NCBI GenBank assembly: GCA_045600405.1
Contig: JAZRXV010000142.1
Coordinates: forward strand, 15,261-79,260
Direction of reading: 5' to 3'
Source of the DNA: Candidatus Cryptobacteroides sp.
GTDB taxonomy: Bacteria; Bacteroidota; Bacteroidia; Bacteroidales; UBA932
Length of the DNA: 64,000 nucleotides
Shown one piece after another: positions 40,219 to 59,112 of the stretch; within the stretch, counting starts at the first letter, position 1; each line of letters begins with the position of its first letter. Position numbers and translations under genes: made by a program. The notes under the pieces were generated by a model. It was not told the DNA's origin. It saw only the letters and a program-made list of their open reading frames with translations, and made no database searches.

Positions 40219-40469
40219 CTTTATCCTGATTTCCTTTGCAAAGGTAAGAAGCTGTTTTGAATTTATCAATCTCGATTCTTAAGGATCTTTTCGTCATCTT
40301 TGCTGCCTTCACTCAGTCATGCAGCAACAACTGCACTCCTTCGTTCAGGCATCAAACCTGCTCGAAAATATCTCATGATAAACTTCGGTGACAAATTTCA
40401 AAACAGCTTCTATACTATTGGGAATTTTTTTCTAAATTTGTACAAATGGTCAAATACAAATCAATCTAT

Positions 40470-42406: not shown

Positions 42407-42448
42407 GGCCGTTTTTTTGTAAATTTGCATTACAATCAGTCATCGGGG

Positions 42449-43534
42449 ATGAAATTCAAGTCAATTGCCGCTCTTGCTTTGCTTCCGGCCGCAGTCTCAT
42501 GTGTGATGAGAACCGAGGCCGGCGCCGACATGCATCCGTTCGTTTCCGCCATCCTTCAGGACCGGTACGGCGATGATTACAGGATGCTGCAGGCCACAGC
42601 ATGCCCGGACCCTGATGGTGATGTCTATATCATCGGCGACGAGGAGCATGTCCTGCATCTTGCAGATTATCTGTCAATTTGCGACCTGCATGATAATGTC
42701 GACGGTTCTGCCGGGCCTGACGGCCTTCCTGATTTTGCCGGGGAGACAATATCATGCATAGTGGATACCTCATCGGTCATCTCCGGTGAACGCTTCCGTG
42801 AGTCAGTTGTCCGCTGCGTCCTGGAGGCTGTCGACACTGTCTTTCACATCACTCCGTATGATATCGAGGGGATAGGACACAAGGCCCCGGCCAAACTGAT
42901 TGTTCTTGCCTGTCCTCAGTATTCCAGATTGTCATCGCATGATATCGATACTTTGCTGACTGCTTCGGGGTCCGGGATCCGTTTCATTTCATCTACGGAT
43001 GATGTGTTCGGGAATCTTGCCGCGGCGCGCTCCGGTAAGGAATTCTCTCTGAGTGTGATAAGTGACAGTAAGTATTCCGATTACGACCTGTATGAGGACA
43101 GTTTCCGTAATGCGTGCAAGCGTGCCGGTGTGCCGGACGGGAAACTGACCGTATTCCCGGCCTCACCGTCGAATCCCGACAGCCTGATGCTATCAATTCT
43201 TGATTCCTATACCGGCTCCGGGGCCGATGAGGCCATCAATGCTTTCGTCGTAGATGATTGCTCCTTTGATGTCAATGAATTGAAAGCCAGCCTGGCCAGT
43301 CTGGTTTCCGTAACCAATGAACGTTCCGTGAAATACGGCAAACTCGTTTCGCAGGATTTCCGGATGGCCGGTACCGTGGATATCGTGACATCGTTATGTT
43401 ACGACGCTCTAAGGAAAGGCAATTTATTCACTCACAATATAGCCAAACCTCAGGTCAGTATCTATTATGTCACCCCGGAACCGGAAGGTGGCAGTGGACT
43501 GTTCCTAGTGCCTGGATTTTATGTACAAAATTAG
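42449..43534 (+). CDS. Lipoprotein, probable degenerate Asp/Glu-racemase-family homologue
   Basis: Lipobox AVSC; DNVDG...PDGLPDFAGE and KLIVLAC; canonical ACNT and LGCTH motifs not intact. Confidence 0.5.
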   Translation: MKFKSIAALALLPAAVSCVMRTEAGADMHPFVSAILQDRYGDDYRMLQATACPDPDGDVYIIGDEEHVLHLADYLSICDLHDNVDGSAGPDGLPDFAGETISCIVDTSSVISGERFRESVVRCVLEAVDTVFHITPYDIEGIGHKAPAKLIVLACPQYSRLSSHDIDTLLTASGSGIRFISSTDDVFGNLAAARSGKEFSLSVISDSKYSDYDLYEDSFRNACKRAGVPDGKLTVFPASPSNPDSLMLSILDSYTGSGADEAINAFVVDDCSFDVNELKASLASLVSVTNERSVKYGKLVSQDFRMAGTVDIVTSLCYDALRKGNLFTHNIAKPQVSIYYVTPEPEGGSGLFLVPGFYVQN

Positions 43535-44189
43535 CATTTCGCCTGAAGAGATAGATAGTATGCCGCAGGGGACATTCCCTGGGGACATACATGTGATTAC
43601 TAAAGGTGGTTTTGAGTATGCGAAGGCGATAGCGTACCTCAAGCAGCAGAAAGTGATAGGGTTTGATACGGAGACCCGTCCGGTGTTCGAACCGGGCAAG
43701 CCTCACAGGCATACAGCCCTGCTTCAGTTGTCAGGGGCAGACCGTGCATATCTTTTCCGGGTGCATAAGATGGGTATGCGCAGACTTGTCTGCTCCATAC
43801 TCTCCAATCCGAATATTATCAAGGTCGGAGCTGCCGTCCATGATGATATCAGGGGCCTGCAATATTATTCCAAATACGAGCCCCGCGGTTTTGTCGACCT
43901 TCAGAAAATAGTGTGGGAGTGGGGTATAAGGGATAAGAGCGTCAAGAAAATGGCTGCCAACATCCTCGGGTGCAGGATATCCAAGACCCAGCAGCTTTCC
44001 AATTGGGAGGCTCCGGAATTGAGCCCGTCCCAGCAGATGTATGCGGCCACCGATGCATGGGTGTGCCGCGAGATGTATCTAAGGCTGCTATCTTCCGAGA
44101 AGCATCCTCTCACTCCGGAACAGCTTGCTCCTGCACCTCCTCAGAATCAGATAAAAAATGATCAGGATAATACTGAAAAAAGGGCGTGA
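43521..44189 (+). CDS. 3'-5' exonuclease (DEDDy, WRN/RNase D-like)
   Basis: GFDTETRP, LLQLS, SNWE, YAATDAW. Confidence 0.88.
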   Translation: MYKISISPEEIDSMPQGTFPGDIHVITKGGFEYAKAIAYLKQQKVIGFDTETRPVFEPGKPHRHTALLQLSGADRAYLFRVHKMGMRRLVCSILSNPNIIKVGAAVHDDIRGLQYYSKYEPRGFVDLQKIVWEWGIRDKSVKKMAANILGCRISKTQQLSNWEAPELSPSQQMYAATDAWVCREMYLRLLSSEKHPLTPEQLAPAPPQNQIKNDQDNTEKRA

Positions 44190-45342
44190 CGAGTCGTTGC
44201 GCCGCTTTCATCCGTGGGTTTTTTCAGGAGCGATAGCCCAGATTCAGGGCTCCCCGGCAGAAGGGGACCTGGTTGCCGTTCACACCGCAGACGGGCAGTT
44301 CCTTGCCTGTGGCCATTATCAGATCGGCTCCATTGCCGTAAGGGTGTTGAGTTTCAACGGGGATCCAACTGCATCCGATTTCTGGTACAATGCCATTTCA
44401 AGGGCATATTCCGTGCGTGCATCCATCAATCTTGAGGATACTACCTGTTTCCGCCTGGTACATGGTGAGGGTGACGGGCTTCCGGGTCTTATCATCGACT
44501 GGTATGACGGCGTTTGCGTGATGCAGGCCCACAGTGTCGGTATGTTCAGGTCAAAGACCCGGATCTGCGAGGCTCTGAAAGCCGTTTTCGGGGATTCGCT
44601 GAAAGCTGTGTACGACAAGAGCTCAGGGACTGCTCCTTTCAAGGCCGGACTGGATCTTGTTGACGGCTATCTTTGGAAAAGAGACGGTTTTTCAGGTGCC
44701 GAGAATGAAGTCCTGGAGAACGGCAGGAAATTCATAGTCAATTGGGAGGAGGGGCAGAAAACAGGCTTCTTCCTTGACCAGAGGGATAACAGGGCCCTCG
44801 TGGGGAGACTTGCCAAAGGCAGGAAAGTGCTTAACCTTTTCTGCTATACGGGCGGTTTCAGCGTCTATGCTGCCACTGCGGGTGCGGTTTCCGTGGATTC
44901 TGTGGATTCTTCCGCAAGGGCCATAGACCTGGTCAACAGGAATATGGAGCTCAATCATCCTGATTCTGCATCTTATGAGAGTTACTGCACGGATGCCATA
45001 GAATTCCTCGGTAAGTGTGAGGAAGGGAAATATGACCTGATAATCGTGGACCCTCCTGCATTCGCAAAGCACAGGGGAGCATTGCACAACGCCCTGAGGG
45101 CCTATCAGAGGCTGAATGCCGCAGCCATATCAAAAGTGGCGCCGGGAGGATTCGTCTTCACTTTCAGCTGCTCCCAGGTGGTGGACAAGATCACTTTTGC
45201 CAACACCGTTTTCTCCGCAGCTGCCCAGACAGGACGGAGTGTGCGCATACTTGACCGCCTTTGCCAGGGTGCGGATCATCCGGTCAACATATATCATCCT
45301 GAGGGTGAGTATCTGAAGGGACTGCTGTTGTATGTTGAATAA
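44158..45342 (+). CDS. rlmI: 23S rRNA m5C1962 methyltransferase-like
   Basis: HPWVFSG, HGEGDGLPG, GQKTGFFLDQRDNR, DPPAFAK, FSCS, EYLKG. Confidence 0.88.
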   Translation: MIRIILKKGRDESLRRFHPWVFSGAIAQIQGSPAEGDLVAVHTADGQFLACGHYQIGSIAVRVLSFNGDPTASDFWYNAISRAYSVRASINLEDTTCFRLVHGEGDGLPGLIIDWYDGVCVMQAHSVGMFRSKTRICEALKAVFGDSLKAVYDKSSGTAPFKAGLDLVDGYLWKRDGFSGAENEVLENGRKFIVNWEEGQKTGFFLDQRDNRALVGRLAKGRKVLNLFCYTGGFSVYAATAGAVSVDSVDSSARAIDLVNRNMELNHPDSASYESYCTDAIEFLGKCEEGKYDLIIVDPPAFAKHRGALHNALRAYQRLNAAAISKVAPGGFVFTFSCSQVVDKITFANTVFSAAAQTGRSVRILDRLCQGADHPVNIYHPEGEYLKGLLLYVE

Positions 45343-45399
45343 TTTTTTGTAAATTTGTTCGAACGTGAACGTTTAACATTAAACCATAATCAATTAAAC

Positions 45400-46095
45400 A
45401 TGAAAAAGTATTTTGCAGAGTGCATCGGAACAATGGTTCTGACACTTTTGGGCTGCGGTACCGCAGTTTTCGTAGGTTGCGGTGATACAGCTGGCGTATT
45501 TGCCACAGCTGCAGCATTCGGACTTTCTGTAATTGCGATGGCTTATACCATCGGCGCAATCTCAGGTTGCCATATCAATCCTGCAATCACCCTCGGTGTC
45601 GTCCTCAGCAAGAGGATGAGCTGGAAGGATGCATGCGGATATTGGGCCGGTCAGTTCATCGGTGGTCTCATCGGTGCTGCTATCCTCTTCGCCATCGTCA
45701 AGGTGACAGGGGCTCCTGGCGCAATGGGCAATCCTGCCGGACTCGGCACCAACGGTGTTGCCAATGCTGGCGGTGCAGGTGGTGCATGCCTCGTCGAAAT
45801 CGTTGCCACATTCCTCTTTGTCCTTGTTGTTCTCGGGACAACTGACGACAAGAAGGGCGCCGGCAACCTTGCAGGTCTCGCCATCGGTCTTACCCTTGTA
45901 CTCATCCACCTCGTGTGCATCAACCTCACCGGCACATCAGTCAACCCGGCCCGTTCATTCGGACCAGCTGTTTTCGCCGGCGGACAGGCTCTCAAGGATG
46001 TCTGGGTATTCATCGTTGCTCCTTTCATCGGTGGCGCTCTTGCTGCTCCGGTTTGGAAGTGCCTCGCCTGCGAGTGCGGAAAGTGCGAGAAATAA
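45400..46095 (+). CDS. MIP-family aquaporin
   Basis: SGCHINPA and TSVNPARS motifs; about 6 TM helices. Confidence 0.92.
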   Translation: MKKYFAECIGTMVLTLLGCGTAVFVGCGDTAGVFATAAAFGLSVIAMAYTIGAISGCHINPAITLGVVLSKRMSWKDACGYWAGQFIGGLIGAAILFAIVKVTGAPGAMGNPAGLGTNGVANAGGAGGACLVEIVATFLFVLVVLGTTDDKKGAGNLAGLAIGLTLVLIHLVCINLTGTSVNPARSFGPAVFAGGQALKDVWVFIVAPFIGGALAAPVWKCLACECGKCEK

Positions 46096-46116
46096 TCCCT
46101 ATTCAGCAATTTCAAC

Positions 46117-46145
46117 GGGCCGGCTGCTTTGAGCCGGCCTTTTTT
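46117..46145 (+). terminator. Intrinsic terminator after the aquaporin gene
   Basis: GGCCGGCT-gctttg-AGCCGGCC-TTTTTT. Confidence 0.85.
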
Positions 46146-46224
46146 ATGCCCTTTGTGATGGAAAAACCGTGAAAAACTTGGCTTTGCGGATACTTTTTGC
46201 TATTTTTCTGCGATATATTGTGAT

Positions 46225-47253
46225 ATGGAAAGACATGTGTTGCATTTGGACCGCCGCTTTGATTTTGAGTGTGGTGGGTATATAGATTCTCCGGACCTGG
46301 TTTATTTCACTTCCGCCAGGGAATACAGACCGGGGGAGAAAGTTGTGTGGGTGTGTCATGCATTGACCGGCAATTCGAATCCGGAAGACTGGTGGCCCGA
46401 GATGGTAGGTCCCGGACGGCTTTTCGATCCGGACAAATATTATATCGTCTGCGTCAGTATGCTGTGCTCTCCATATGGTGAGTGCAGTCCGGCAACGATC
46501 AATCCGGCAACCGGCCGTCCTTATCTTCTTGATTTCCCCAAAACGACCATAAGGGATGTCGTCAATGCCAATATTCTTGTAAGGAAGCATCTTGGGATCG
46601 AGAAGATAGATATGATGCTCGGGCCGTCCATCGGAGGTTTTCAGACGGTCGAGTGGACATACATGGAGCCGGATGTCATACTGAATTCCGTGTTCCTTGC
46701 AACGTCCGTCAAGGCTCTCCCGTTCCTCACTGCTTTCAATGAGTCGCAGAGGATGGCGCTTCGTGCTGACAGTACCTTCATGGCAGCCGAGGACATCCAC
46801 GGCGGCGAGGCCGGTCTGATGTGCGCCCGTTCGATAGCCCTGATTTCGTATAGGACCAGTATGGGATACAATGTCAGCCAGAAGGAGGAGGACGTTGATG
46901 TGATATTCTCCGATAAAGCTGCGTCATATCAGCGCTATCAGGGGCTCAAGCTTGTCAGGAGGGGCTTTGATGCCTATGGCTACTGGTACCTTTCCTATGC
47001 GCTCGACTCGATGAATGTAGGCCGTGGACGCGGTGGCGTGGAGAACGCCCTGCGGTCTATCAAGGCACACTGCATACTGATCGGCATCACTACCGACCAG
47101 CTGTTCCCGTCCGATCTTCTGAAGGAGGCGTCGGAGATAATTCCGGATGCCGATTTCCACGAGATCGACTCAATTTTCGGTCATGACGGTTTTCTCATTG
47201 AGAATGAACAGCTTGACGCTATACTCAGACCATACGTAGAAAAATACCTTTAG
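46225..47253 (+). CDS. metX: Homoserine O-acyltransferase (MetX family)
   Basis: CHALTG, GPSIGG, TDQLFP, GHDGFLIE. Confidence 0.9.
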   Translation: MERHVLHLDRRFDFECGGYIDSPDLVYFTSAREYRPGEKVVWVCHALTGNSNPEDWWPEMVGPGRLFDPDKYYIVCVSMLCSPYGECSPATINPATGRPYLLDFPKTTIRDVVNANILVRKHLGIEKIDMMLGPSIGGFQTVEWTYMEPDVILNSVFLATSVKALPFLTAFNESQRMALRADSTFMAAEDIHGGEAGLMCARSIALISYRTSMGYNVSQKEEDVDVIFSDKAASYQRYQGLKLVRRGFDAYGYWYLSYALDSMNVGRGRGGVENALRSIKAHCILIGITTDQLFPSDLLKEASEIIPDADFHEIDSIFGHDGFLIENEQLDAILRPYVEKYL

Positions 47254-47255
47254 AA

Positions 47256-48671
47256 ATGGCAAGAAACATTTCCGTCTGCGATATTACATTGCGGAAGTCT
47301 GCGGACAATTCCGGCAGCGCACTTCCGTTCCGGATCAAGATCGAAGTCGCCAAACTTCTTTCGGGGCTCGGTGTATCCGTTATAGAAACTTCCCCTATAC
47401 TTAATGGGAAGACAGATTATTTCCTGGTCAAATCCCTGGCATCAGCAGTGTCTGCCAGCACGGTCTCCGTGCCTGTCAATATACTTGATGCCGCCAGTCC
47501 GGCAACGGCATGGGATGCACTGAAGGATGCAGCGCATCCGAGGCTTCAGGTGCCCGTACCGGTCAGCACTGTCCAGATGGAATACTTCTGCCACAAGAAG
47601 CCGGAGGGAATCCTGAAGCTCGTCGCTGACAATGTCGCTGCGTGTGCGGCCCTTTGCCCGGAGGTAGAATTCGTCGCCGAGGATTTCGGACGCAGTGACC
47701 CCGACTTCCTTATGTCGGCCATTGATACGGCTGTCAGCAATGGCGCCAAGGTAATAACGGTTGCCGATGCTGCCGGTAACCTTCTGGAAGATGAATTCTT
47801 CGCATCCATCAGGAAGATACGTGAGGCTATCCCGGCGGAAGTCAAATTGGGAGTGTATTGTTCCAATGACCTCTATCTTGCTGACTCCTGCGCGGTTTCT
47901 GCGGTCAGGGCCGGTGCTGATGAGGTCAAGGTCGTATCCATGGGCAATCCGACGGTCTCCCTCAAGAGGTTCCCGCGCATCCTCAATGCAAAGGCTGATG
48001 TATGCGATGCCGTTTGTGGTGTGAAACTCACCGAACTTGACCATGTCATAGCCAAGATCCATAAGTTGTGTGAAGTATGCCGTGCGAAGTCTCCTACTTC
48101 TCTGGGGCTGCCTTCCGGCAGCGATGAGATACGTCTCTCTGTCCATGATGACATGGCATCGGTGCTCAATGTCATCAGCAGCCTTGGATATGACCTCGGC
48201 GAAGAGGACAGCAGGAAGGTCTATGATGCATTCGTACGCCTCTCATCCGGTGACAAGGTAATAGGAGCCAAGGAGATAGATGCTATCGTTGCATCTGTGG
48301 CATTCCAGGTGCCTCCAACCTTCCATATGGAGAGTTTTGTGATAAATACGGGCAATGTTATGACGCCTACCTGCCACATAAGACTGAGGAAAGGTGATGA
48401 GATGCTTGAAAGCGTGTGCATAGGTGACGGACCTGTGGATGCCGCATTCCTTGCAATAGAGAAGGTTGTCGGCCGTCATTTCGAACTGGATGATTTCCAG
48501 GTCCGGAGCGTTACGGAAGGCCGGGAAGCCATGGGTGAGACCATAGTCCGTCTGCGTCACGACGGACGCCTTTATTCGGGAAGGGGAGTCTCAAAGGATA
48601 TCATAGCATCAGGCGTGCTTGCATACCTGAATGCTGTCAATAAGATAGCATACGAGGAGGAACAGGCTTGA
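47256..48671 (+). CDS. Degenerate 2-isopropylmalate-synthase-like protein with intact C-terminal regulatory domain
   Basis: DITLRKSAD instead of DTTLRDGEQ; GVYCSND instead of HxHND; conserved GDGPVDA...GRGVSKDII. Confidence 0.8.
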   Translation: MARNISVCDITLRKSADNSGSALPFRIKIEVAKLLSGLGVSVIETSPILNGKTDYFLVKSLASAVSASTVSVPVNILDAASPATAWDALKDAAHPRLQVPVPVSTVQMEYFCHKKPEGILKLVADNVAACAALCPEVEFVAEDFGRSDPDFLMSAIDTAVSNGAKVITVADAAGNLLEDEFFASIRKIREAIPAEVKLGVYCSNDLYLADSCAVSAVRAGADEVKVVSMGNPTVSLKRFPRILNAKADVCDAVCGVKLTELDHVIAKIHKLCEVCRAKSPTSLGLPSGSDEIRLSVHDDMASVLNVISSLGYDLGEEDSRKVYDAFVRLSSGDKVIGAKEIDAIVASVAFQVPPTFHMESFVINTGNVMTPTCHIRLRKGDEMLESVCIGDGPVDAAFLAIEKVVGRHFELDDFQVRSVTEGREAMGETIVRLRHDGRLYSGRGVSKDIIASGVLAYLNAVNKIAYEEEQA

Positions 48672-51148
48672 AACTCTCATTTTCAACAAGAGGCTGGACC
48701 GATCTCGGCTGGGATGAGGTTATGCAGAGCGCCTGCGAGATGCGTTTCTCGGGGATAGAGGTATATAATGTATTCAAGAGCCCGGAACTTACGGGCATAG
48801 GCGGACCTTTCCACAAATATTCCGTCATGCAGACCGCCAGAGGTCTCAGGGGGCGTGGCTTGACCATACCGTGCTTCGACAGTTCCAACGATATTTCCGA
48901 AGACGGTGCAGGGATGCTGACTGAAGTCGGAGACCTTATCCGCCTGGCGTCCGATATGGGATCCGGCTATGTCTGTGTCTTTGCAAAGGAGGACAGACAG
49001 GACGTGATAAGGCGGAATCTTGACAGTCTGATACCGCTCGCCCGTCAGAAGGGTGTGACCATACTTATCAAGACCAGCGGAGTCTTTTCGGATACATCCC
49101 TTCTGCGTGCGCTCATGGACGATTTTGCCTGTGACCAGATCGCTGTGCTCTGGGATGTGCATCATCCATACAGGGACAAGGGCGAGAACCCTGTGGATTC
49201 AATCAAGAACCTCGGTGCCTATGTCAGACATGTGCATCTGAGGGACAGCGATGACAGCGGTGCATATTGTATGGTAGGGGAAGGCACTTTCCCTCTGGCC
49301 GAGGTCATGAGGTCGTTGTCCTCCATTGACTATGATGGTTATGTCTCATTGGAATGGAAGCCTGACTGGATGCGGGAGATGGTCGACAGGGACGTGATCT
49401 TCCCATATTTCGTCAATTACATGGAGCGTTTCGAACGGGTCGATCCGCGCCGTAAGGACAGACTTTATCCCAACCATGACGGAAGCGGGTACTATGTATG
49501 GAAAAAGGATGATCTCATCGATCTGACCTTCTCCAAGGTGCTTGACAGGATGGTCGAAGAATTCCCTGACCAGTATTGCTTCAAATACACGACTTTGGAC
49601 TATACCAGGACTTATTCGGAATTCCGCAGGGATGTTGACGATTTTGCAAGGGCTCTGGTGTCGCTTGGCGTCCGTCCCGGAAGCAAGGTCAGCGTATGGG
49701 CTACCAATGTACCGGCATGGTACATTACTTTCTGGGCAACGGTGAAGATAGGTGCCGTCCTCGTGACCATGAACACCGCATACAAGTCCCATGAGGCCGA
49801 GTATCTGCTCAGGCAGTCCGACACCCATACCCTTGTCATGATTGACAGCAGCCTTGACTCCAACTATCGCAAGATAATAAACGAACTCTGTCCTGAGATA
49901 AAGAAGAGCGTGGCGGGGGAGCCCCTTCATTGCTCGAGACTTCCTTTCCTCAGGAATGTCATATCGGTAGGTTTCAAGCAGAAAGGCTGCCTCACATTCG
50001 AGGAAGCCATGGCGCGCAAGGCCATGGTGCCGTATGAAACAGTGGCCGGTATGGCGGCTGAAGTGCGTCCGGACGATGTATGCAACATGCAGTACACCTC
50101 CGGGACCACCGGATTCCCGAAGGGAGTGATGCTCACGCATTACAATGTCGTGAACAATGGTAAATGTATCGGCGACAGGATGGGTCTTTCCACGGCGGAC
50201 AGGATGATGATACAGGTTCCTATGTTCCATTGTTTCGGCATGGTGCTTTCCATGACCTCTTCGATCACCCATGGGGCGACACTATGCCCTATGCCTTATT
50301 TCTCCGCCAAGTCTTCGCTGTCCTGTATCAATCAGGAGCATATCACCTGCTTCAACGGGGTGCCGACCATGTTCATAGCCATGTTCAACCATCCGGATTA
50401 CCGCAAGACGGATTTCTCCTATATGCGTACGGGCATAATGGCCGGTTCGGGCTGCCCTCCGGAACTTATGCGCAGGGCTGCCAGGCCGGATGAGATGAAT
50501 ATGCGCGGGATAGTGAGCGTTTACGGTCAGACCGAGACCGCCCCGGGATGCACGATGTCATCATGGACGGACAGCATTGACGTCAGGTGCGACACTGTAG
50601 GATATCCGTTCCCTCATGTCCAGTGCAAGGTGATAAATCCTGAGACCGGAGAGCCTGTGAAGCCGGGTGAAAACGGGGAGTTCTGCTCCCGCGGATACAA
50701 TACCATGAAGGGCTATTACAAGATGCCGGATGCCACGGCACAGGCTATAGACGCTGATGGATGGATGCATTCCGGGGATCTGGCATGTGCTGATGAGGAT
50801 GGGAACTACCGCATCACCGGCCGTCTTAAGGATATGATAATCCGTGGTGGTGAGAACCTGTATCCTAAGGAGATAGAGGAATTTATCTATACTCATCCTT
50901 TCGTGAAGGATGTGCAGGTCATCGCTATCCCTGACAAGAAATATGGGGAGGAGGCAATGGCATGCATAGTGCTGAAGGATGGCTGCAGTATCACCGAGCC
51001 TGAGATGCGCGAGTATATCACCGGGCATCTGGCACGTCACAAGGTCCCGAAATACATCGAATTCGTCGAAGGTTTCCCTATGAATGCTGCAGGAAAGGTC
51101 CTGAAGTACAAGATGAGGGAAGAATATATCGCCAAGCTTGGCTTGTAG
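48668..51148 (+). CDS. Xylose-isomerase-like TIM barrel fused to an AMP-dependent acyl-CoA synthetase
   Basis: WDVHH, HVHLRD, SLEW in aa 1-250; QYTSGTTGFPKG, YGQTE, GRLKDMIIRGGEN, GKVLK after; TTG start overlaps the upstream TGA. Confidence 0.85.
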   Translation: MKLSFSTRGWTDLGWDEVMQSACEMRFSGIEVYNVFKSPELTGIGGPFHKYSVMQTARGLRGRGLTIPCFDSSNDISEDGAGMLTEVGDLIRLASDMGSGYVCVFAKEDRQDVIRRNLDSLIPLARQKGVTILIKTSGVFSDTSLLRALMDDFACDQIAVLWDVHHPYRDKGENPVDSIKNLGAYVRHVHLRDSDDSGAYCMVGEGTFPLAEVMRSLSSIDYDGYVSLEWKPDWMREMVDRDVIFPYFVNYMERFERVDPRRKDRLYPNHDGSGYYVWKKDDLIDLTFSKVLDRMVEEFPDQYCFKYTTLDYTRTYSEFRRDVDDFARALVSLGVRPGSKVSVWATNVPAWYITFWATVKIGAVLVTMNTAYKSHEAEYLLRQSDTHTLVMIDSSLDSNYRKIINELCPEIKKSVAGEPLHCSRLPFLRNVISVGFKQKGCLTFEEAMARKAMVPYETVAGMAAEVRPDDVCNMQYTSGTTGFPKGVMLTHYNVVNNGKCIGDRMGLSTADRMMIQVPMFHCFGMVLSMTSSITHGATLCPMPYFSAKSSLSCINQEHITCFNGVPTMFIAMFNHPDYRKTDFSYMRTGIMAGSGCPPELMRRAARPDEMNMRGIVSVYGQTETAPGCTMSSWTDSIDVRCDTVGYPFPHVQCKVINPETGEPVKPGENGEFCSRGYNTMKGYYKMPDATAQAIDADGWMHSGDLACADEDGNYRITGRLKDMIIRGGENLYPKEIEEFIYTHPFVKDVQVIAIPDKKYGEEAMACIVLKDGCSITEPEMREYITGHLARHKVPKYIEFVEGFPMNAAGKVLKYKMREEYIAKLGL

Positions 51149-51172
51149 AATACTGAAATCTTAACCTGTCTG

Positions 51173-52753
51173 TCAGGCCTCTTCTTCATCGGCAAGTGAA
51201 GAGGAGGCCTTTACAGTAACTGTGCGTTCGTAGCATTTGAACATGGAGTCTATCTTCTCCTTGTCGGCGACCTTCGAGAATAAACTGACTGCCGGTACGA
51301 CCACCATTCCTGAAAGCATTGCGAGTACGCCGGCATTGATAGGTGAAGTGAAGTACGGTGAAAGGAAGGTCTTTCCTGTGAAAGTGCAGTACATGCAAGC
51401 GCACATGATAAGGACTCCGACAGCAAAACTTACCCATACTGAGGCTTTGGTGGTGCGTTTCCAATAAAGGCCATAGAGGAACGGGGCGAGGAATGCTCCT
51501 GCCAGGGCACCCCAGGATATGCCCATAAGTTGGGCGATGAAGGTGACCGAACTCTTTGCCTGTATGATTGCAAGGACGGATGAGACCGCTATGAAGAACA
51601 ATACGAAAATGCGTATCCAGCCGAGTTTCGCCTTGTCGCTCATGCGCTTTCCTGTATGTTCGGCGGCGGGTGCTATGATGTCCAGGGTCAGGGTGGACCC
51701 TGATGTGAGTACCAGTGATGACAGGGTGGACATCGATGCCGAAAGGACAAGGATTATCACGATGGCGATCATTAGGTCAGGCAGGGACTCGAGCATGGAA
51801 GGAACAATGCTGTCGTATACGGGTGCTCCTGCTGCCGTATACTCGATGGTCCCTGAGTACAGCCTGCCGAAACCTCCGAGGAAGTAGCATCCTCCTGCGA
51901 CGATCAGGGCAAACATGGTGGAGATGAACGTTCCTTTGCGGATTGCGTCCTCGTCACGGATTGCGTAGAATTTGCCGACCATCTGAGGAAGTCCCCAAGT
52001 TCCGAGAGATGTCAGAAGGACGACACCAAGAAGATATATCGGCTGAGGGCCGAGGAAGGAAACGAACGCTCCATTAAGCCCCGGTGCGCTTTCTGCCTGA
52101 ATTGATGAAAGGCTCTGGACAGCCTGTGTGAAACCTCCGTTGAATTTCAGTACCGAGAATACCACGGCGCAGATTCCCACAAGCATTATCAAACCTTGTA
52201 TGAAGTCGTTGATTGCAGTTGCCATATAACCTCCCACCAGGACATATATGCCGGTCAGGATTGCCATGGCAAGCACGCACCATGCATAGTCGATGCCGAA
52301 AGCCATGCCGAACAGGCGTGACAGACCGTTATACAGGGATGCGGTGTAAGGAATCAGGAATACGAAGACAATTACTGAAGCCGCGACCTTGAGTGCCCTG
52401 GAACCGAATCGTGCGCCGAAGAAATCGGGCATTGTTGCACTGTGCAGATGCTGTGTCAGCAGACGGGTGCGCCTTCCGAGTATCCTCCAGGCCAGCAGGG
52501 AGCCGATAAGTGCATTTCCGAGTCCTATCCAGGTTGATGCGAGGCCGTATTTCCATCCGAACTGTCCTGCATATCCCACGAAGATGACGGCGGAGAAATA
52601 GGATGTTCCGAATGCGAAGGCTGTAAGCCAGGAACCGACATTGCGTCCTCCGAGGACGAAACCCTGTACGTTTGACGCGGTCTTGCGGCAATAGATGCCT
52701 ACACCGATCATAATGGCGAAGAATATCGCCAGGAGAGAAATCTTGAGAAACAT
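51173..52753 (-). CDS. Sodium:solute symporter family transporter
   Basis: FVLGGR, SYFSAVIFVG, DFIQG, LSASMSTLSS; multiple TM helices; own TACCTTTG promoter near 52777-52784. Confidence 0.9.
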   Translation of the reverse strand: MFLKISLLAIFFAIMIGVGIYCRKTASNVQGFVLGGRNVGSWLTAFAFGTSYFSAVIFVGYAGQFGWKYGLASTWIGLGNALIGSLLAWRILGRRTRLLTQHLHSATMPDFFGARFGSRALKVAASVIVFVFLIPYTASLYNGLSRLFGMAFGIDYAWCVLAMAILTGIYVLVGGYMATAINDFIQGLIMLVGICAVVFSVLKFNGGFTQAVQSLSSIQAESAPGLNGAFVSFLGPQPIYLLGVVLLTSLGTWGLPQMVGKFYAIRDEDAIRKGTFISTMFALIVAGGCYFLGGFGRLYSGTIEYTAAGAPVYDSIVPSMLESLPDLMIAIVIILVLSASMSTLSSLVLTSGSTLTLDIIAPAAEHTGKRMSDKAKLGWIRIFVLFFIAVSSVLAIIQAKSSVTFIAQLMGISWGALAGAFLAPFLYGLYWKRTTKASVWVSFAVGVLIMCACMYCTFTGKTFLSPYFTSPINAGVLAMLSGMVVVPAVSLFSKVADKEKIDSMFKCYERTVTVKASSSLADEEEA

Positions 52754-52795
52754 GACCAACTATGCTACTAACAGCACAAAGGTAAGAAATATATG

Positions 52796-53698
52796 TTATA
52801 AAACCATCCCTGACGAATGTCTGTTCTGATTGCGGAATTCGGATGCTGTGATTCCGACATATTGCTTGAAGGCGCAGCAGAACCTGCTGGCGGACTCGTA
52901 GCCTGTTTCGAACGCTATCTCCTTTATACTTTTGTCGGAAGATGTGAGCAGTGTCTTGGCGTGGTTCATCCTCTGGTTGAGGGAGTATTCCGCCATGGAC
53001 ATCCCCGTTATTGTCTTGAACTGGTCCCGGAGCAGGGAATAGCTCATGCCGAGCTGTGAGGCTATCTCGGAAGGGGAGATGTGCGCTGAAAGGTCTTCCC
53101 TCAGCAGTATCTGGGCTTTCTGTATCTTTTCAAGATTCTTTATCCTCGTGGCCGAAGCGTTGGCAATTTTGTGATAGACATACCCCAGGAGTGCGTAGAT
53201 GAAACCTCCTATGGCCTGCTGGCTTCCGAGTTTATCCGAATTTGCCAGATACAGGATGCGTCCATAGATGTCGAACACGGTATCGCTGCTGCCTATCGGC
53301 AGGACAGGATTCTGCCTGCTGAAGAAATTGCCTATCATGGCATCCAGATGACTGTCTCCGCGGAATCCCACCCATATCTCGGTCCATCCGGTTTCTTCTT
53401 CCGGACAGTATTCGTGCTCTTCGCCGGGGAACACTATTATCATGTCCCCTTCGCTGACCTTCGTGCGGGGACATGACTTGCTCCAGAAGTAACCCTGCCC
53501 GCTTGTTATGTACACCAGCTGGTATTCGTCAAGGGTGCGGCCGCTGCCCGGGAAAAGATATTTTTCCGGGTGGGGAAGCGAAGGATAGAGGGTGTGGGGA
53601 GCGCTCGTCTGCTTGCCGACTGTGGTGCATACGAGCCCCCATAATTCATCTTTGCCCTGGTGGGCGAGATAATGCATCCTGTCTTCTTTTGCAATCAT
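52796..53698 (-). CDS. AraC-family transcriptional regulator
   Basis: Cupin-like N-terminus GRTLDEYQLVYI, PGEEHEY; C-terminal SIKEIAFETGY...F...FK...G.T.SEFR. Confidence 0.92.
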   Translation of the reverse strand: MIAKEDRMHYLAHQGKDELWGLVCTTVGKQTSAPHTLYPSLPHPEKYLFPGSGRTLDEYQLVYITSGQGYFWSKSCPRTKVSEGDMIIVFPGEEHEYCPEEETGWTEIWVGFRGDSHLDAMIGNFFSRQNPVLPIGSSDTVFDIYGRILYLANSDKLGSQQAIGGFIYALLGYVYHKIANASATRIKNLEKIQKAQILLREDLSAHISPSEIASQLGMSYSLLRDQFKTITGMSMAEYSLNQRMNHAKTLLTSSDKSIKEIAFETGYESASRFCCAFKQYVGITASEFRNQNRHSSGMVL

Positions 53699-53722
53699 TG
53701 GAGCGGGTGGATGGGTTCACTG

Positions 53723-53793
53723 CAAATATAGCATATATTTTATGTTTTTGCCAAAAGTTCGGGTCCGCCTCTCCGGTCTGGCAAAAACATAAA
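53723..53793. promoter_or_regulatory. araC -7 promoter plus a 15-bp inverted-repeat operator candidate
   Basis: TATATTTG on - (53723-53730); TTTATGTTTTTGCCA (53739-53753) / TGGCAAAAACATAAA (53779-53793). Confidence 0.6.
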
Positions 53794-53882
53794 TCCTTAT
53801 GTTATTTTCGGGAAATAAGTTCCCCGTATTTTTCGTTTCTTTGTTATAACTGAAATCAGGCAAAACTTTAACCGATATAACA

Positions 53883-55226
53883 ATGGCAAATGTTGTAATC
53901 ATGCCCAAGCAGGGCCAGTCAGTCGAAAGCTGTATTGTAACGGAATTCAAGAAAAAAGTCGGAGACAAAGTATCTGCAGGCGAGGTCCTGTTCAGCTACG
54001 AGACCGACAAGGCTTCTTTCGAGGAGGAGTCAAAATTCGACGGTACCGTACTTGCGTGCTTCTTCAATGACGGGGATGAAATCCCTTGTCTGACAAACGT
54101 AATGGTGATAGGAAACGAAGGCGAGTCCGTGGACGAGTTCAAGCCGTCGGCGGGCGGTGCATCGGATAGTGCCGCGCAGGCTGTGTCCGAGGAGTCTTCA
54201 GTCCAGGTTGAGGAGGAAGCGCCGTCCTTTGCTTCCGGTCCGGTGGTGGCCGGGGCTCCTGTGTCTCCGCGTGCACGTAAGCTGGCGGTAGAGACGGGAG
54301 TGGATCCGTCCACCGTAGCAGGCTCAGGTCCTTACGGACGGATAATAGAGCGCGATATCGAGGCTGCCGCTGCGTCACGTCCGGCCCTTAGCGGACTTGC
54401 CCGGGCAAAGATGGCGGAAGGCGGATATGCCGCACCGCAGCATGGCTCCGGCCTTGCCGGAATGGCAAAAGGTGGCGACCTCAAAGTGTGCAAGCCTAAC
54501 CATACGGACATTGCAGGAGAAGGCTCCGAATTTCAGGTGGTCAAGATGAGCAACATGCGCAAGCTCATCGCCAAGTCCATGTACAATTCCCTGCAGAATT
54601 CCGCTCAGCTCACTCATATGCTCGGTGCTGACGCCCGCAGGATACAGGCTCTCCGCAAGAAGGCCAAGAAGGCTCTCGAGGAAGGCCGCATAGATGCCAA
54701 CATCACCATCAATGACTTCGTCTGCTTTGCAGTTGTCAAGGCTCTCCAGAAGTTCCCTAACCTCAATTCCCACTGCCTCGGTGATTCCATGAGGCTCTTC
54801 AGCTCAGTCAACCTCGGTTGCGCAGTCGATACCGAGCGCGGTCTCATGGTGCCTGCAGTGCTCCATGCCGATGAACTTAACATAATCGGTCTCAGCAAGC
54901 AGCTCAAGAAGATCGCTGAAGATGCGAAGAAGGGCTGCGTGAATCCTGACCTCCTTTCTCCGGAAGCCGCGTCATTCACCGTATCCAACCTCGGCGGTTT
55001 CGGAGTGGAATGGTTCACTCCTATAATCAACGTTCCTCAGAGTGCTATCCTTGGGGTCGGAACCATCGTCCCTCGTCCTAAGGACCTCGGCGGCGGAGTG
55101 TATGCGTTTGTGCCGTACATGGGCCTGTCCCTTACCTATGACCATCGCGCTGTCGATGGTGGCGAGGCAACCCGTTTCCTCAAGCAGATCGCGGTCGAAA
55201 TAGAAAACCTTGAAGTTGAATTTTAA
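53883..55226 (+). CDS. Dihydrolipoamide acyltransferase (E2)
   Basis: Lipoyl ETDKA; E3-binding SPRARKLA..GSGPYGRI; catalytic DHRAVDG. Confidence 0.92.
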   Translation: MANVVIMPKQGQSVESCIVTEFKKKVGDKVSAGEVLFSYETDKASFEEESKFDGTVLACFFNDGDEIPCLTNVMVIGNEGESVDEFKPSAGGASDSAAQAVSEESSVQVEEEAPSFASGPVVAGAPVSPRARKLAVETGVDPSTVAGSGPYGRIIERDIEAAAASRPALSGLARAKMAEGGYAAPQHGSGLAGMAKGGDLKVCKPNHTDIAGEGSEFQVVKMSNMRKLIAKSMYNSLQNSAQLTHMLGADARRIQALRKKAKKALEEGRIDANITINDFVCFAVVKALQKFPNLNSHCLGDSMRLFSSVNLGCAVDTERGLMVPAVLHADELNIIGLSKQLKKIAEDAKKGCVNPDLLSPEAASFTVSNLGGFGVEWFTPIINVPQSAILGVGTIVPRPKDLGGGVYAFVPYMGLSLTYDHRAVDGGEATRFLKQIAVEIENLEVEF

Positions 55227-55241
55227 AACAAATATCATATC

Positions 55242-56621
55242 ATGTACGATTTAGCGATTATCGGTGCGGGTCCCGGCGGTTATGTTGCAGCCGAGCGTGC
55301 AGGTGCGAAAGGCCTCAGCGTGGTGCTTTTCGAAAAGAATGAACTTGGTGGCGTATGTCTCAACGAGGGCTGTATCCCGACCAAGACTCTCCTTTACAGT
55401 GCCAAGGTGTTTGATTATGCGAGACATTCTGACAAGTATGGAGTGAAGGTGGAGAACGCCGAAGTTGACTTCCCTGAGATAATGAAGCGCAAGACCAAAG
55501 TCGTCCGCAAGCTTGTCGGTGGAGTCAAGGCCAAGATGAAGGGCGCAAAGGTGGAGGTTGTCAAGGGAGAGGCCATGATCCAGGGCCGTTCTGCCGAAGG
55601 TATCACCATCAAGTGCGGCGATGCGGACTATCAGGTGCGCAACCTCCTTATCTGCACCGGATCCGAGGCTACGGTTCCTCCTATCCCTGGACTTAAGGAT
55701 GCAGGTGACGTCATTGCGACCAACCGTGAGATCCTTTCCCTCGAAGAGCAGCCGAAGGAACTTGTCATCATCGGCGGTGGAGTTATTGGAATGGAGTTCG
55801 CAAGTTTCTTCAACAGCATTGGTACAAAGGTTACCGTTGTCGAGATGCTTCCGAAGATACTCGGACCGCTTGATGATGAGATCAGCGGCATGCTCCAGGG
55901 CATATATGAGAAGAAGGGCGTGGAGTTCAATCTCCGCTGCAAGGTCGTCGGCATCGAGGGCAATACCGTCGTTTACGAGGATCCTGAAGGAAAGACCTGC
56001 CGCGTCAGCGGTGACAGGATACTTGTCAGCGTGGGGCGCCGTGCCAATATCCAGGGCTTCGGTCTGGAGAATCTCGGTATCGAGCTGGCAAAGAATCCTG
56101 CCGGACGTCCTTACGGCATCAAGGTGGATGACCGCATGCGTACCAATATCCCTAACGTGTATGCTGCAGGTGACGTCACGGGCTTCAGCCTGCTTGCGCA
56201 CACTGCAAGCCGTGAAGGCGAGGTTGCAATCAATAATATTTGCGGAGTCGAGGATCATATGAGGTATGATGCGATCCCTGGTGTCGTGTACACCAATCCT
56301 GAGGTGGCCGGTGTCGGTCTTACCGAGCAGGAGGCTGCGGCCAAGGGTACAGACTGCACTGTGGTCAAGCTTCCGATGGCATATGCCGGACGCTTTGTCG
56401 CCGAGAATGAAGGCGGCGAGGGAATATGCAAGGTCATCGTTGGCAAGAAGCACCACGAGGTGCTCGGTGTCCACATGCTCGGCAACCCTTGCTCCGAGAT
56501 GATACACAGCGCCTGCATAGCAATCGAGGCCGAGATGACGGTCGAGCAGCTCAAGGAAGTCGTGTTCCCTCATCCTACAGTGTCAGAAATAGTCAAGGAA
56601 ACAATATTCACATTGAAATAA
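55242..56621 (+). CDS. lpdA: Dihydrolipoamide dehydrogenase (E3)
   Basis: GAGPGG, GGVCLNEGCIP, GGGVIG, HPTVSE. Confidence 0.95.
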   Translation: MYDLAIIGAGPGGYVAAERAGAKGLSVVLFEKNELGGVCLNEGCIPTKTLLYSAKVFDYARHSDKYGVKVENAEVDFPEIMKRKTKVVRKLVGGVKAKMKGAKVEVVKGEAMIQGRSAEGITIKCGDADYQVRNLLICTGSEATVPPIPGLKDAGDVIATNREILSLEEQPKELVIIGGGVIGMEFASFFNSIGTKVTVVEMLPKILGPLDDEISGMLQGIYEKKGVEFNLRCKVVGIEGNTVVYEDPEGKTCRVSGDRILVSVGRRANIQGFGLENLGIELAKNPAGRPYGIKVDDRMRTNIPNVYAAGDVTGFSLLAHTASREGEVAINNICGVEDHMRYDAIPGVVYTNPEVAGVGLTEQEAAAKGTDCTVVKLPMAYAGRFVAENEGGEGICKVIVGKKHHEVLGVHMLGNPCSEMIHSACIAIEAEMTVEQLKEVVFPHPTVSEIVKETIFTLK

Positions 56622-56636
56622 TTAAATCCCAATACC

Positions 56637-59111
56637 ATGCCTAAGTCATTATATGTAGATCCACAGGTCGTCAGACAGACCGGTGAAATCACTTTCAAAC
56701 CAATCCCTGTCTGCCAGTACAACAAATCCGTAAAGGATGAACTTGCCGAAGGCAATTTCACCAAGGATGACATTCTCCGCATCTACCGCGACATGTTTGT
56801 GATCCGTGAGTTCGAAACCATGCTCAACCTTGTCAAGACCACCGGTGGATACAACGGAACAGAGTACAACAACCCGGGCCCTGCCCACCTTTCAGCCGGT
56901 CAGGAAGCCGCCGCTGTCGGTATGGCCTATGCACTTGATACCGATGACTTCATCTTCGGTTCCCACCGTTCGCATGGTGAGATTCTGGCAAAGGGACTCC
57001 GTTCAATCCAGATTCTCCCTGATGACGAACTCGAGAAGATAATGAACGAGTTCTGGGGCGGCGCTACTGTAGCAGTCGCAAAGAAGGGATTCACCGGCAC
57101 CACCAAGGAACTCGGCGTCCGTTTCCTTCTCTATGGTGCAATGGCGGAAATCTTTGCACGCGTGACCGGTTTCAACAAAGGTCTCGGCGGATCAATGCAT
57201 ACTTTCTTCACTCCATTCGGTATCTATCCGAATAATGCAATCGTAGGTGGTTCGGGATCCATTGCAGTAGGTGCCGCACTTTATAAGAAGGTCAATCGCA
57301 AGAAGGGTATCGTCGTTGCCAATCTCGGTGACGGTGCCATGGGCCGCGGCCCTGTGCTCGAAGGTATGACCTTCGCATCGATGGACCAGTTCCATACCCT
57401 TTGGGAGGGTGATATGAAGGGTGGCCTTCCTGTCCTGTTCAATATCATGAACAACCAGTACGCTATGGGTGGACAGACCCGCGGCGAGACCATGGGCTAT
57501 GATTTCGCAGCCCGTCTCGGTGCTGGGTTCAACCCTGACGAGATGCATGCAGAGCGCGTGGACGGTTACAATCCTCTTGCTGTCATCGACGCATTCCGCA
57601 GGAAGAAGGCTCTCCTTGAGAAGAAGGAGGGACCGGCCCTTCTCGATGTCGTGACATACCGCTACAGCGGCCACTCTCCAAGCGACCAGTCCTCATACCG
57701 TACCAAGGAAGAGATCGAGGCCTGGCTCAAGGAAGACTGCATCATTGCCTTTGGTGAGAAATTGAAAGCCGCAGGCCTTGCTGATGACGCTGCTCTCGAA
57801 GCTATCCAGAAATCTGTCAAGGACGTAATGTTCGACTGTTACAAGCTTGCCATCGATCCTGAACTCTCGCCTCGCATGGACCTTGTCAAGGACAACGAAC
57901 TTCTTGGTGACATGATGTTCTCCAACGGTAGCGTTGATTCCATGAGCGATGCCAAGCCTGACGTGCTTATGCCTCTTGAGGACAATCCTCGCGTCAAGCA
58001 GATCGCCGGCAAAGAGCGCTTCCATGTTGACAAGGACGGCAAGCCGGTCAGCAAGATGAAGACATTCAATATCCGCGACGGTATCTTCGAGGCCGTTGTG
58101 GACAGGTTCTACAAGGATGCTTCCCTCGTTGCATACGGTGAGGAGAACCGTGAATGGGGCGGTGCGTTCGCAGTTTACCGCGGACTTACCGAAGCGCTTC
58201 CATATCACCGTCTGTTCAACTCTCCTATTTCCGAGGCGGCCATCATAGGCACATCCATCGGATATGCCATGTGCGGTGGCCGTGTAATACCGGAAATCAT
58301 GTACTGCGACTTCCTCGGTTGCTGCGGAGACGAGATATTCAACCAGCTCCCTAAGTGGCAGGCTATGTCCGGCAATATCCTCAAGATGCCTGTTGTCGTA
58401 CGTGTATCCGTAGGTTCCAAGTACGGCGCACAGCATTCACAGGACTGGACGTCCCTCTGTACCCATATCCCGGGTCTCAAGGTCGTGTTCCCAGTCACTC
58501 CGTATGATGCCAAGGGTCTCATGAATGCAGCACTTCAGGGTACCGACCCTGTCATCTTCTTCGAGAGCCAGCGCATTTACGACATGGGTGAGAAGTTCCA
58601 TGAGGGCGGTGTGCCTGAGGGATATTATGAGATTCCTTTCGGTGAGCCTGATGTCAAGCGTCAGGGCAAGGATGTAACCTTCCTGACGATCGGAGCCACC
58701 CTTTACCGTGCTCTTGCCGCTGCAGACATGCTTAAGGAGAAATACGGCATGGAGGCAGAGGTGATAGACGCACGCACCATGGTACCGTTCAATTATGAGA
58801 AGGTCATCGAGTCAGTCAAGAAGACCGGACGTATCATCATAGCCGGTGACGCTACCGCACGCGGATCATTCCTCAACGATCTTGCTGCCAATATCACTGA
58901 TATGTGCTTCGATTATCTCGATGCCGCTCCTGTGGTGCTCGGTTCACGCAACTGGATTACGCCTTGCCATGAACTTGAGGCAGCGTTCTTCCCTCAGCCG
59001 GAATGGTTCCTTGATGCGATCAATGAGAAGATGGTCCCTCTCAAGGACTATACTCCTACCACCAACATGACGGCTGCACAGCAGGTGATCCGTTCAAAGA
59101 AGGGTATATAG
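56637..59111 (+). CDS. Fused E1 alpha/beta ThDP-dependent dehydrogenase (PDH/acetoin-dehydrogenase-like)
   Basis: GQEA, SHRSHG, GDGA...NNQY, YRYSGHS; beta part SPISEAAIIG, GAQHSQ, EVIDART. Confidence 0.88.
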   Translation: MPKSLYVDPQVVRQTGEITFKPIPVCQYNKSVKDELAEGNFTKDDILRIYRDMFVIREFETMLNLVKTTGGYNGTEYNNPGPAHLSAGQEAAAVGMAYALDTDDFIFGSHRSHGEILAKGLRSIQILPDDELEKIMNEFWGGATVAVAKKGFTGTTKELGVRFLLYGAMAEIFARVTGFNKGLGGSMHTFFTPFGIYPNNAIVGGSGSIAVGAALYKKVNRKKGIVVANLGDGAMGRGPVLEGMTFASMDQFHTLWEGDMKGGLPVLFNIMNNQYAMGGQTRGETMGYDFAARLGAGFNPDEMHAERVDGYNPLAVIDAFRRKKALLEKKEGPALLDVVTYRYSGHSPSDQSSYRTKEEIEAWLKEDCIIAFGEKLKAAGLADDAALEAIQKSVKDVMFDCYKLAIDPELSPRMDLVKDNELLGDMMFSNGSVDSMSDAKPDVLMPLEDNPRVKQIAGKERFHVDKDGKPVSKMKTFNIRDGIFEAVVDRFYKDASLVAYGEENREWGGAFAVYRGLTEALPYHRLFNSPISEAAIIGTSIGYAMCGGRVIPEIMYCDFLGCCGDEIFNQLPKWQAMSGNILKMPVVVRVSVGSKYGAQHSQDWTSLCTHIPGLKVVFPVTPYDAKGLMNAALQGTDPVIFFESQRIYDMGEKFHEGGVPEGYYEIPFGEPDVKRQGKDVTFLTIGATLYRALAAADMLKEKYGMEAEVIDARTMVPFNYEKVIESVKKTGRIIIAGDATARGSFLNDLAANITDMCFDYLDAAPVVLGSRNWITPCHELEAAFFPQPEWFLDAINEKMVPLKDYTPTTNMTAAQQVIRSKKGI

Positions 59112-59112
59112 T

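Follow-up and report, generated by a model that had tools for sequence, protein, structure and literature searches.

The locus

We analyzed a window of 64,000 nucleotides (nt) from Candidatus Cryptobacteroides sp. (Bacteroidales; assembly GCA_045600405.1, our genome G000, 81% complete; contig JAZRXV010000142.1, positions 15,261 to 79,260). An intact open reading frame (ORF) in this window codes for a homologue of LeuA, the isopropylmalate synthase (IPMS), in which residues of the active site are lost; we call it pseudo-LeuA. The next gene encodes a TIM-barrel::acyl-coenzyme A (CoA) ligase fusion protein. We saw that the two genes form a conserved module with a predicted role in making leucine from isovalerate. 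The features of the pair are listed below, with sizes in amino acids (aa):

47256..48671 (+), pseudo-LeuA, 471 aa: DRE-TIM barrel that lacks the metal ligands, with loss of subdomain I and retention of subdomain II and the LeuA regulatory domain (Pfam, NCBIfam scores, alignment, structure model, Foldseek)
47268..47945 (+), degenerate HMGL-like barrel of pseudo-LeuA, aa 5-230 (Pfam, alignment)
48267..48647 (+), LeuA_dimer allosteric domain of pseudo-LeuA, aa 338-464 (Pfam, alignment)
48668..51148 (+), TIM-barrel::acyl-CoA ligase fusion, 826 aa, TTG start, predicted isovalerate-CoA ligase (domains, motifs, fold)
48746..49366 (+), xylose-isomerase-like barrel of the ligase, AP_endonuc_2, aa 27-233 (Pfam; Lys135 replaces the first metal-ligand Glu)
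49544..51097 (+), complete ANL adenylate-forming domain of the ligase, aa 293-810 (Pfam, motifs)

The TGA stop of the pseudo-LeuA gene overlaps the TTG start of the ligase gene by 4 nt. Upstream, a metX-like gene ends at position 47253, leaving a gap of 2 nt; downstream, a gene of the sodium:solute symporter (SSF) family converges on the pair, 24 nt beyond the ligase stop. This layout was already given, with correct coordinates, in an earlier model-made reading of the letters without database searches (hereafter the sequence-only reading), which had also described the stop–start overlap and a complete adenylate-forming domain. All ANL motifs are indeed present and invariant in the ligase domain (P-loop, YG-TE, GD, R-D hinge and Lys810), and the ANL fold is recognized; Pfam divides the domain into AMP-binding (aa 293-684) and AMP-binding_C (aa 735-810), and its best profile is PRK12583 / NF009233 (E 5.5e-196).

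Pseudo-LeuA as a conserved family

The sequence-only reading had noted loss of the metal-binding and catalytic residues of LeuA together with an intact frame and a conserved C-terminal allosteric domain. An alignment of 124 family members with eight longer LeuA-like sequences extended both observations to the whole family. In the protein from the window the RDGEQ position reads R13-K-S-A-D, the His-x-His position reads Y201-C-S203, and GERAGN is missing. Across the family the metal Asp is kept in 8 of the 124 members and the Arg of RDGEQ in 45, the two His of His-x-His in 2 and in 1, and the Asn ligand in 5; the Asp, His-x-His and Asn are the metal ligands of LeuA. The GERAGN loop is shortened. 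A further loss, which the sequence-only reading had not mentioned, concerns subdomain I: none of the 124 members has the segment that contains its catalytic His and Tyr. The accessory domain is described as required for IPMS catalysis, the His and Tyr of subdomain I completing the active site (PMC9860122).

The regulatory domain, on the other hand, keeps six residues invariant in all 124 members (G390, G392, G442, D448, A460 and N462); its GDGPVDA motif lies at aa 390-396. Family-specific residues approach invariance as well: F25 (124/124), P102 (121), E109 (123), Y110 (121), K115 (124) and Q351 (115). The family-specific conserved positions of the barrel, F25, P102, S104, E109, Y110 and K115, mark a candidate partner surface.

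All NCBIfam models of LeuA and CimA score below cut-off on pseudo-LeuA; the LeuA profile gives 276 bits versus 52-57 bits for the CimA models. The FastTree phylogeny likewise groups the family with LeuA, apart from two CimA-like outgroups, although its deep branches are weakly supported. The predicted structure (predicted local distance difference test score, pLDDT, 92) matches IPMS barrels in Foldseek (3ewb: template-modelling score 0.93 by target, root-mean-square deviation 1.6 Å). Judged by catalytic criteria, pseudo-LeuA is not a member of LeuA; it forms a large conserved family. The best 150 matches of a profile search included ~100 near-full-length representatives (50% clustering), and frames are intact across two phyla.

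We computed ratios of nonsynonymous to synonymous substitution rates (dN/dS) from the 153 of 2278 pairs with dS of 0.1-1.2; pairs involving the window's own sequence were saturated. The medians were 0.31 for the pseudo-LeuA barrel, 0.20 for its regulatory domain and 0.12 for the ligase. Thus the family is under purifying selection, and the value near 1 that the sequence-only reading had associated with simple decay was not observed.

Four full-length LeuA-like proteins of ~500 aa (P0245, P0250, P0251 and P0263) fall outside the family and have partly eroded catalytic motifs; they possibly represent independent degenerations.

Coupling of pseudo-LeuA to the ligase

Synteny was analyzed in 80 loci, the best 80 of at least 562 pseudo-LeuA relatives from a genome scan. 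A barrel::ligase gene lies directly downstream of pseudo-LeuA in 78 of the 80, and the remaining two loci stop at contig edges. All 77 measurable ligases are in-frame fusions, and the two genes overlap in 52 of the 77 pairs (48 by 4 nt, 4 by 1 nt). Of 151 genomes drawn evenly from the family of G087 (Bacillota), 32 carried full pseudo-LeuA, and each of these had the ligase (29 on the same contig, 3 split across contigs). In the genus of the window pseudo-LeuA is rare (7 of 301 genomes). Because the Bacteroidales ligases nest within those of Clostridia in a midpoint-rooted tree, the trees suggest that the module likely moved from Clostridia to Bacteroidales.

The ligase barrel itself is common in Clostridia: it was matched in 152 of 300 scored Clostridia-class genomes, many of the matches being fusions of ~820-870 aa. 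Some of these ligases stand alone, and the barrel differs between the two classes. Its metal site has five positions (Glu/Asp/His/His/Glu in the family consensus), and all five are intact in 24 of 24 lone ligases versus 12 of 86 paired ones (one of the 86 counted twice); two Arg are also conserved at this site in the 24 lone copies. The ligase of the window has Lys135 at the first, Glu, position, as most paired copies have.

Leucine T-boxes and the substrate

Of 77 loci, 44 have a T-box motif in the 600 nt upstream, and none of the 16 Bacteroidota loci is among them; Rfam (RF00230) confirmed the T-box in 14 of 15 loci scanned. In all 46 leaders that were read, from Bacillota relatives, the specifier was a leucine codon, CUG, CUC or CUA (43 listed leaders, two of them resolved by further scans, and three read by eye). 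Control leaders had AUC (Ile) before MbcS-like ligases (5 of 5) and AAC before one class II D/K/N tRNA synthetase. Reading the specifier as serine (UCU) is ruled out by two leaders in which the base preceding CUN is altered and, under the discriminator rule, by the UGGU bulge present in every leader. Specifiers were read by the rule in PMC2494555; the T-box survey in the supplement of that paper has no AMP-binding or CoA-ligase entry.

Lone ligases follow T-boxes as well (12 among the 18 loci that were scanned; all 10 leaders read have CUC); the leucine link is therefore a property of the ligase itself. At loci L200, L205, L206, L208, L209, L214, L216, L218, L225, L103, L104 and L107 the barrel::ligase gene stands alone behind a T-box (CUC where read), and its metal-type barrel site is intact.

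The sequence-only reading had placed the ligase in salvage of branched-chain acids for making branched-chain amino acids at large. Salvage of a branched-chain acid is supported; its range narrows to leucine and isovalerate because of the leucine T-boxes, while MbcS-like ligases with isoleucine T-boxes cover 2-methylbutyrate and isobutyrate. The MbcS of S. aureus is reported to use 2-methylbutyrate and isobutyrate and to use isovalerate poorly (PMC10026030), a gap that the barrel::ligase would fill. In four loci (L041, L049, L054 and L060) an operon with an Ile (AUC) T-box lies divergent from the module; it encodes two XRE-cupin-MbcS-like ligases and Vor subunits, a candidate route of 2-methylbutyrate/isobutyrate salvage, as well as a P-loop protein of 229 aa without an assigned family.

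Pathway genes of the carriers

Other neighbours among the 80 loci are MbcS-like ligases (30), VorB (26), pyruvate:ferredoxin oxidoreductase (PFOR, 21) and IlvE (4); these counts are lower bounds because the ORF caller missed some genes. In the Bacteroidales locus L023 the pair sits among ilvD-ilvB-ilvC. In another, L029, it sits among ilv and leuC-leuD-cimA-like genes, with leuB after PFOR, in a genome without leuA over cut-off.

Gene content was searched in 50 carrier genomes (50 of the 80 loci), 15 of Bacteroidota and 35 of other phyla. Canonical leuA scored over cut-off in 4 of the 50 and leuB in 12, all of them Bacteroidota; eight of the leuB-bearing carriers have leuB and a CimA-like gene and no leuA over cut-off. 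Residual IPMS activity of pseudo-LeuA feeding leuBCD was rejected because none of the 35 non-Bacteroidota carriers has leuB over cut-off. Among the genomes of the Bacillota draw, canonical leuA was present in 1 of 32 carriers versus 22 of 119 others (G200 counted as canonical); kin are not independent in such gene-content contrasts, and the assemblies are incomplete.

The genome of the window encodes an MbcS-like ligase, Vor alpha, beta and gamma subunits and a housekeeping PFOR; no ilvB, ilvC, ilvD, cimA, leuD or over-cut-off leuB was found in this 81% complete assembly. Its contigs C39 and C54 account for two VorB-like matches, of which one lies next to the MbcS-like ligase at the end of a contig.

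Genomes with lone ligases had leuA over cut-off in 12 of 14 cases versus 1 of 15 for paired ligases, and leuB in 12 of 14 versus 2 of 15. This co-occurrence suggested that canonical LeuA may moonlight as partner of the lone ligases, an idea that gained no support from the sequences: in ten LeuAs whose genomes carry the ligase (lone in 9, paired in 1), the pseudo-LeuA-specific residues were no more frequent than in ten controls.

The PFOR that follows the ligase (NifJ-type; L030:11914-15402 and 20 other loci) is a second copy beside the housekeeping enzyme. Linked PFORs are 62-100% alike across phyla and ~53-56% alike to housekeeping copies, and they form their own clade in a quick tree. Compared with the PFOR of D. 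africanus, they have Ala219→Val in 21 of 21, Leu121→Met in 16 of 21 and Ile843→Ala in the 14 of 14 where the position was readable (of the other seven, 3 were truncated and 4 not parsed). These three positions are described as surrounding the methyl group of pyruvate (PMC5020499). The substitutions suggest a changed acyl preference, and the linked PFOR is a candidate for the enzyme that carboxylates isovaleryl-CoA.

The symporter and other neighbours

Further features near the pair are:

46117..46146 (+), terminator-like hairpin 3' of the upstream MIP gene
46225..47253 (+), metX-like acyltransferase, probably co-transcribed with the pair at this locus but not conserved as part of the module (profile score below cut-off; neighbour counts)
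51173..52759 (-), SSF, convergent neighbour, not part of the module (Pfam, synteny)

The hairpin would set the 5' boundary of a metX–pseudo-LeuA–ligase transcript; promoter-like sites at the locus occur at about chance level. A metX gene adjoins pseudo-LeuA in 3 of 80 loci and in one further genome, and a B12 methionine synthase-like gene lies near the module in 3 of 80; a link to methionine through metX is thus not general.

Co-occurrence of three genes, with the symporter as importer of the acid, had been proposed by the sequence-only reading. The pseudo-LeuA–ligase part of that proposal stands, whereas SSF adjoins the pair in 0 of 80 loci and has to be dropped from the system. In the genus it occurs in 30 of 301 genomes (5 of 7 pseudo-LeuA carriers versus 25 of 294 others) and adjoins the pair only in the window; in the four other genus carriers that have it, it lies on other contigs, and no conserved neighbours were found around it in 14 genus loci. 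In the Bacillota draw SSF is present in 19 of 32 carriers versus 39 of 119 others, kin again not being independent. Rfam found Tyr (UAC) T-boxes directly upstream of SSF in 2 of 20 Bacillota loci, and a third was found by motif. In 4 of the 20 loci SSF lies between an acyl-CoA ligase and IorA (one locus profiled, with a UUC (Phe) leader; the others recognized by eye). The genome of the window has an IorA homologue. The symporter is likely an importer of aryl acids or aromatic amino acids, serving a parallel aromatic salvage route in the same organisms; it is not part of the pseudo-LeuA–ligase module. Orthologues with a Tyr T-box or with the acyl-CoA ligase/IorA and Phe T-box context are at loci L183, L188, L190 and L196.

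Farther along the window (53883-59111, +) there is a cluster of 2-oxoacid/acetoin dehydrogenase type with E2, E3 and a fused E1 alpha-beta (824 aa). It adjoins a divergent AraC regulator (52796-53698) and is followed by a 364-aa ORF (59113-60207) with no Pfam match.

Predicted function and its alternatives

Very probably, the module salvages leucine from isovalerate. The barrel::ligase would convert isovalerate, ATP and CoA to isovaleryl-CoA, which a 2-oxoacid:ferredoxin oxidoreductase (a Vor-type enzyme encoded elsewhere in G000 or, in relatives, the linked PFOR paralogue) would carboxylate with CO2 and reduced ferredoxin to 2-oxoisocaproate; a transaminase would then yield leucine. Such a route would bypass LeuA, LeuCD and LeuB. 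The pseudo-LeuA dimer is predicted to bind leucine via its intact C-terminal domains and to relay this signal to the ligase, whose eroded N-terminal barrel is the probable point of contact, so that at high leucine the use of ATP and CoA by the ligase would stop. We infer flux direction, leucine binding, feedback role and substrate; for the whole reading, salvage from isovalerate with pseudo-LeuA as leucine-feedback partner of the ligase, we estimate a probability of about 0.6.

Several observations weigh against it. The ligand of the regulatory domain is deduced from ancestry, and the homologous domain of CimA binds isoleucine. Isovalerate as substrate is deduced from regulation and gene context, and the ligase scores under the PRK12583 cut-off (652 versus 832). 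Canonical leuA is retained in 4 of 15 Bacteroidota carriers. In G000 itself, at 81% completeness, neither a class IV aminotransferase nor a linked PFOR paralogue was found, and the Rfam scan of window positions 40000-60000 gave no T-box or other match. Ligases also do without the partner: 10 of 44 genomes have the ligase and no pseudo-LeuA, and the best 30 Clostridia ligase loci include 16 paired ones and 14 without pseudo-LeuA, one lone locus having no more than 144 nt upstream. Since lone ligases are still controlled by leucine T-boxes, not every ligase of the family needs pseudo-LeuA. The lone ligases are largely one clade, so lone-versus-paired contrasts amount to few independent events, confounded with genome size and kinship. 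Finally, G216 has a barrel-only copy without the regulatory domain (280 aa, L114:8126-8968) before its ligase.

The barrel-only copy would fit a variant in which the salvage route is the same and pseudo-LeuA is mainly a structural or activating subunit, a HisZ-like activator or a stabilizer for the barrel-decayed ligase, with leucine feedback absent or secondary. Translational overlap suggests fixed stoichiometry, the pseudo-LeuA barrel too has new invariant residues (F25, E109, Y110 and K115), and erosion of the ligase barrel tracks pairing. Yet the regulatory domain is the most conserved part of pseudo-LeuA by dN/dS, and G211, truncated in the direction opposite to G216, keeps just this domain (153 aa, L113:632-1093) before a shortened ligase; we consider the variant unlikely. 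Pseudo-LeuA could also sense leucine and control another target, for instance gene expression or the oxidoreductase that carries out the carboxylation: PFOR or Vor genes often lie nearby, and reductive carboxylation is the costly step of the route. The ligase, however, is the sole constant neighbour, and the Pfam scan of pseudo-LeuA found no DNA-binding domain, which leaves a different target improbable. We give about as little credence to leucine formation by other chemistry, in which the ligase would activate another acid (e.g. 2-hydroxyisocaproate or isocaproate) or the LeuA-like barrel would have a new metal-independent catalytic site. The metal-type site and two Arg of lone ligases would be unneeded in a simple isovalerate route, and D9, D143, R146, D171 and K115 are conserved in pseudo-LeuA. 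The first four, though, are conserved in canonical LeuA too and look structural, the ligase barrel site is gone in most paired copies, and the oxidoreductase neighbours with the mirror-image Ile-T-box MbcS/Vor operon fit carboxylation of C5 acyl-CoA.

Import of the branched-chain acid for the ligase by the convergent symporter draws on adjacency in the window and on enrichment of SSF among carriers; we hold it distinctly unlikely, given the lack of adjacency in all 80 loci, the separate contigs in genus carriers, the non-independence of kin, and the Tyr T-boxes or acyl-CoA ligase/IorA context of SSF loci with no conserved neighbours in the genus. The chance that pseudo-LeuA is a decaying leuA pseudogene adjoining the ligase by accident is negligible: lost catalytic residues and the lack in G000 of leuB and leuD homologues of expected score would agree with decay, but the frames are intact in two phyla, the ~100 clustered representatives and the confident structure model speak for a maintained protein, synteny is fixed and dN/dS is well below 1.

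Returning to leucine salvage with feedback by pseudo-LeuA, a broader scenario joins all parts, and we offer it tentatively, at somewhat less than even odds. The module would be the genetic basis of the isovalerate-carboxylation route. The leucine-sensing LeuA of de novo synthesis would have been duplicated, killed and rewired to control the first salvage enzyme. It would have replaced the barrel site of the ligase, leaving that barrel to decay to a docking domain; isovaleryl-CoA would receive CO2 from a dedicated NifJ-type PFOR with a remodelled pocket, and the cassette would have spread from Clostridia to Bacteroidales.

Relation to known systems and significance

Pseudo-LeuA shares the barrel fold, subdomain II and the C-terminal regulatory domain with the short bacterial form of LeuA (TIGR00973/NF002086; PDB 3ewb, 3rmj, 3fig). 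It differs in the lost metal ligands, GERAGN loop and subdomain-I His/Tyr, is ~30-40 aa shorter, scores far below cut-offs, has invariant residues of its own, and has its gene coupled to that of a ligase instead of leuCDB. Neither profile scores nor tree placement put it with CimA.

A functional parallel is HisZ, a catalytically dead paralogue of histidyl-tRNA synthetase reported to regulate short-form HisG (PMC9734150, PMC10795190). By analogy, pseudo-LeuA is predicted to work like HisZ: each is a conserved dead paralogue of an amino-acid-binding enzyme, co-encoded with its actual or putative target and kept as end-product sensor (predicted for pseudo-LeuA) at the first step toward the same amino acid. 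The folds are unrelated, and the proposed target of pseudo-LeuA, whose role we infer, is an ANL ligase of a salvage route.

S. aureus MbcS (NF047394) and the XRE-cupin-MbcS-like ligases next to Vor genes are likewise ANL ligases that activate short branched acids, and they occur in the same loci and genomes as the module. Their identity to the ligase domain of the fusion is just ~24-26%, and MbcS disfavours isovalerate (PMC10026030); the fusion has leucine T-boxes, in contrast to the isoleucine T-boxes of the MbcS-like genes, and a TIM-barrel N-terminus. From the fatty acid CoA ligase family PRK12583 / NF009233, under whose cut-off it falls, it differs by the extra 270-aa N-terminal barrel.

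Reports that anaerobes of the rumen and gut form leucine from isovalerate date back to the 1960s, and this ability is one reason why branched-chain volatile acids are growth factors; labelling work showed isovalerate carboxylation in rumen bacteria (PMC7356843, citing Allison, Bryant and Doetsch 1962; Allison et al. 1966). The predicted chemistry of the module and its habitat are the same. Our literature search, with most subscription journals outside its reach, found no gene assigned to the isovalerate activation step and no paper on the pseudo-LeuA–ligase module.

The ligase, the regulator and the PFOR paralogue are candidate genes for making leucine from isovalerate. If this is true, metabolic models that treat the carriers as strict leucine auxotrophs would be wrong, and so would databases that name the pseudo-LeuA gene leuA. 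A dead LeuA controlling an enzyme of unrelated fold would be a new pseudoenzyme regulator, and the linked PFOR would be a single-chain variant fixing CO2 onto a larger acyl group.

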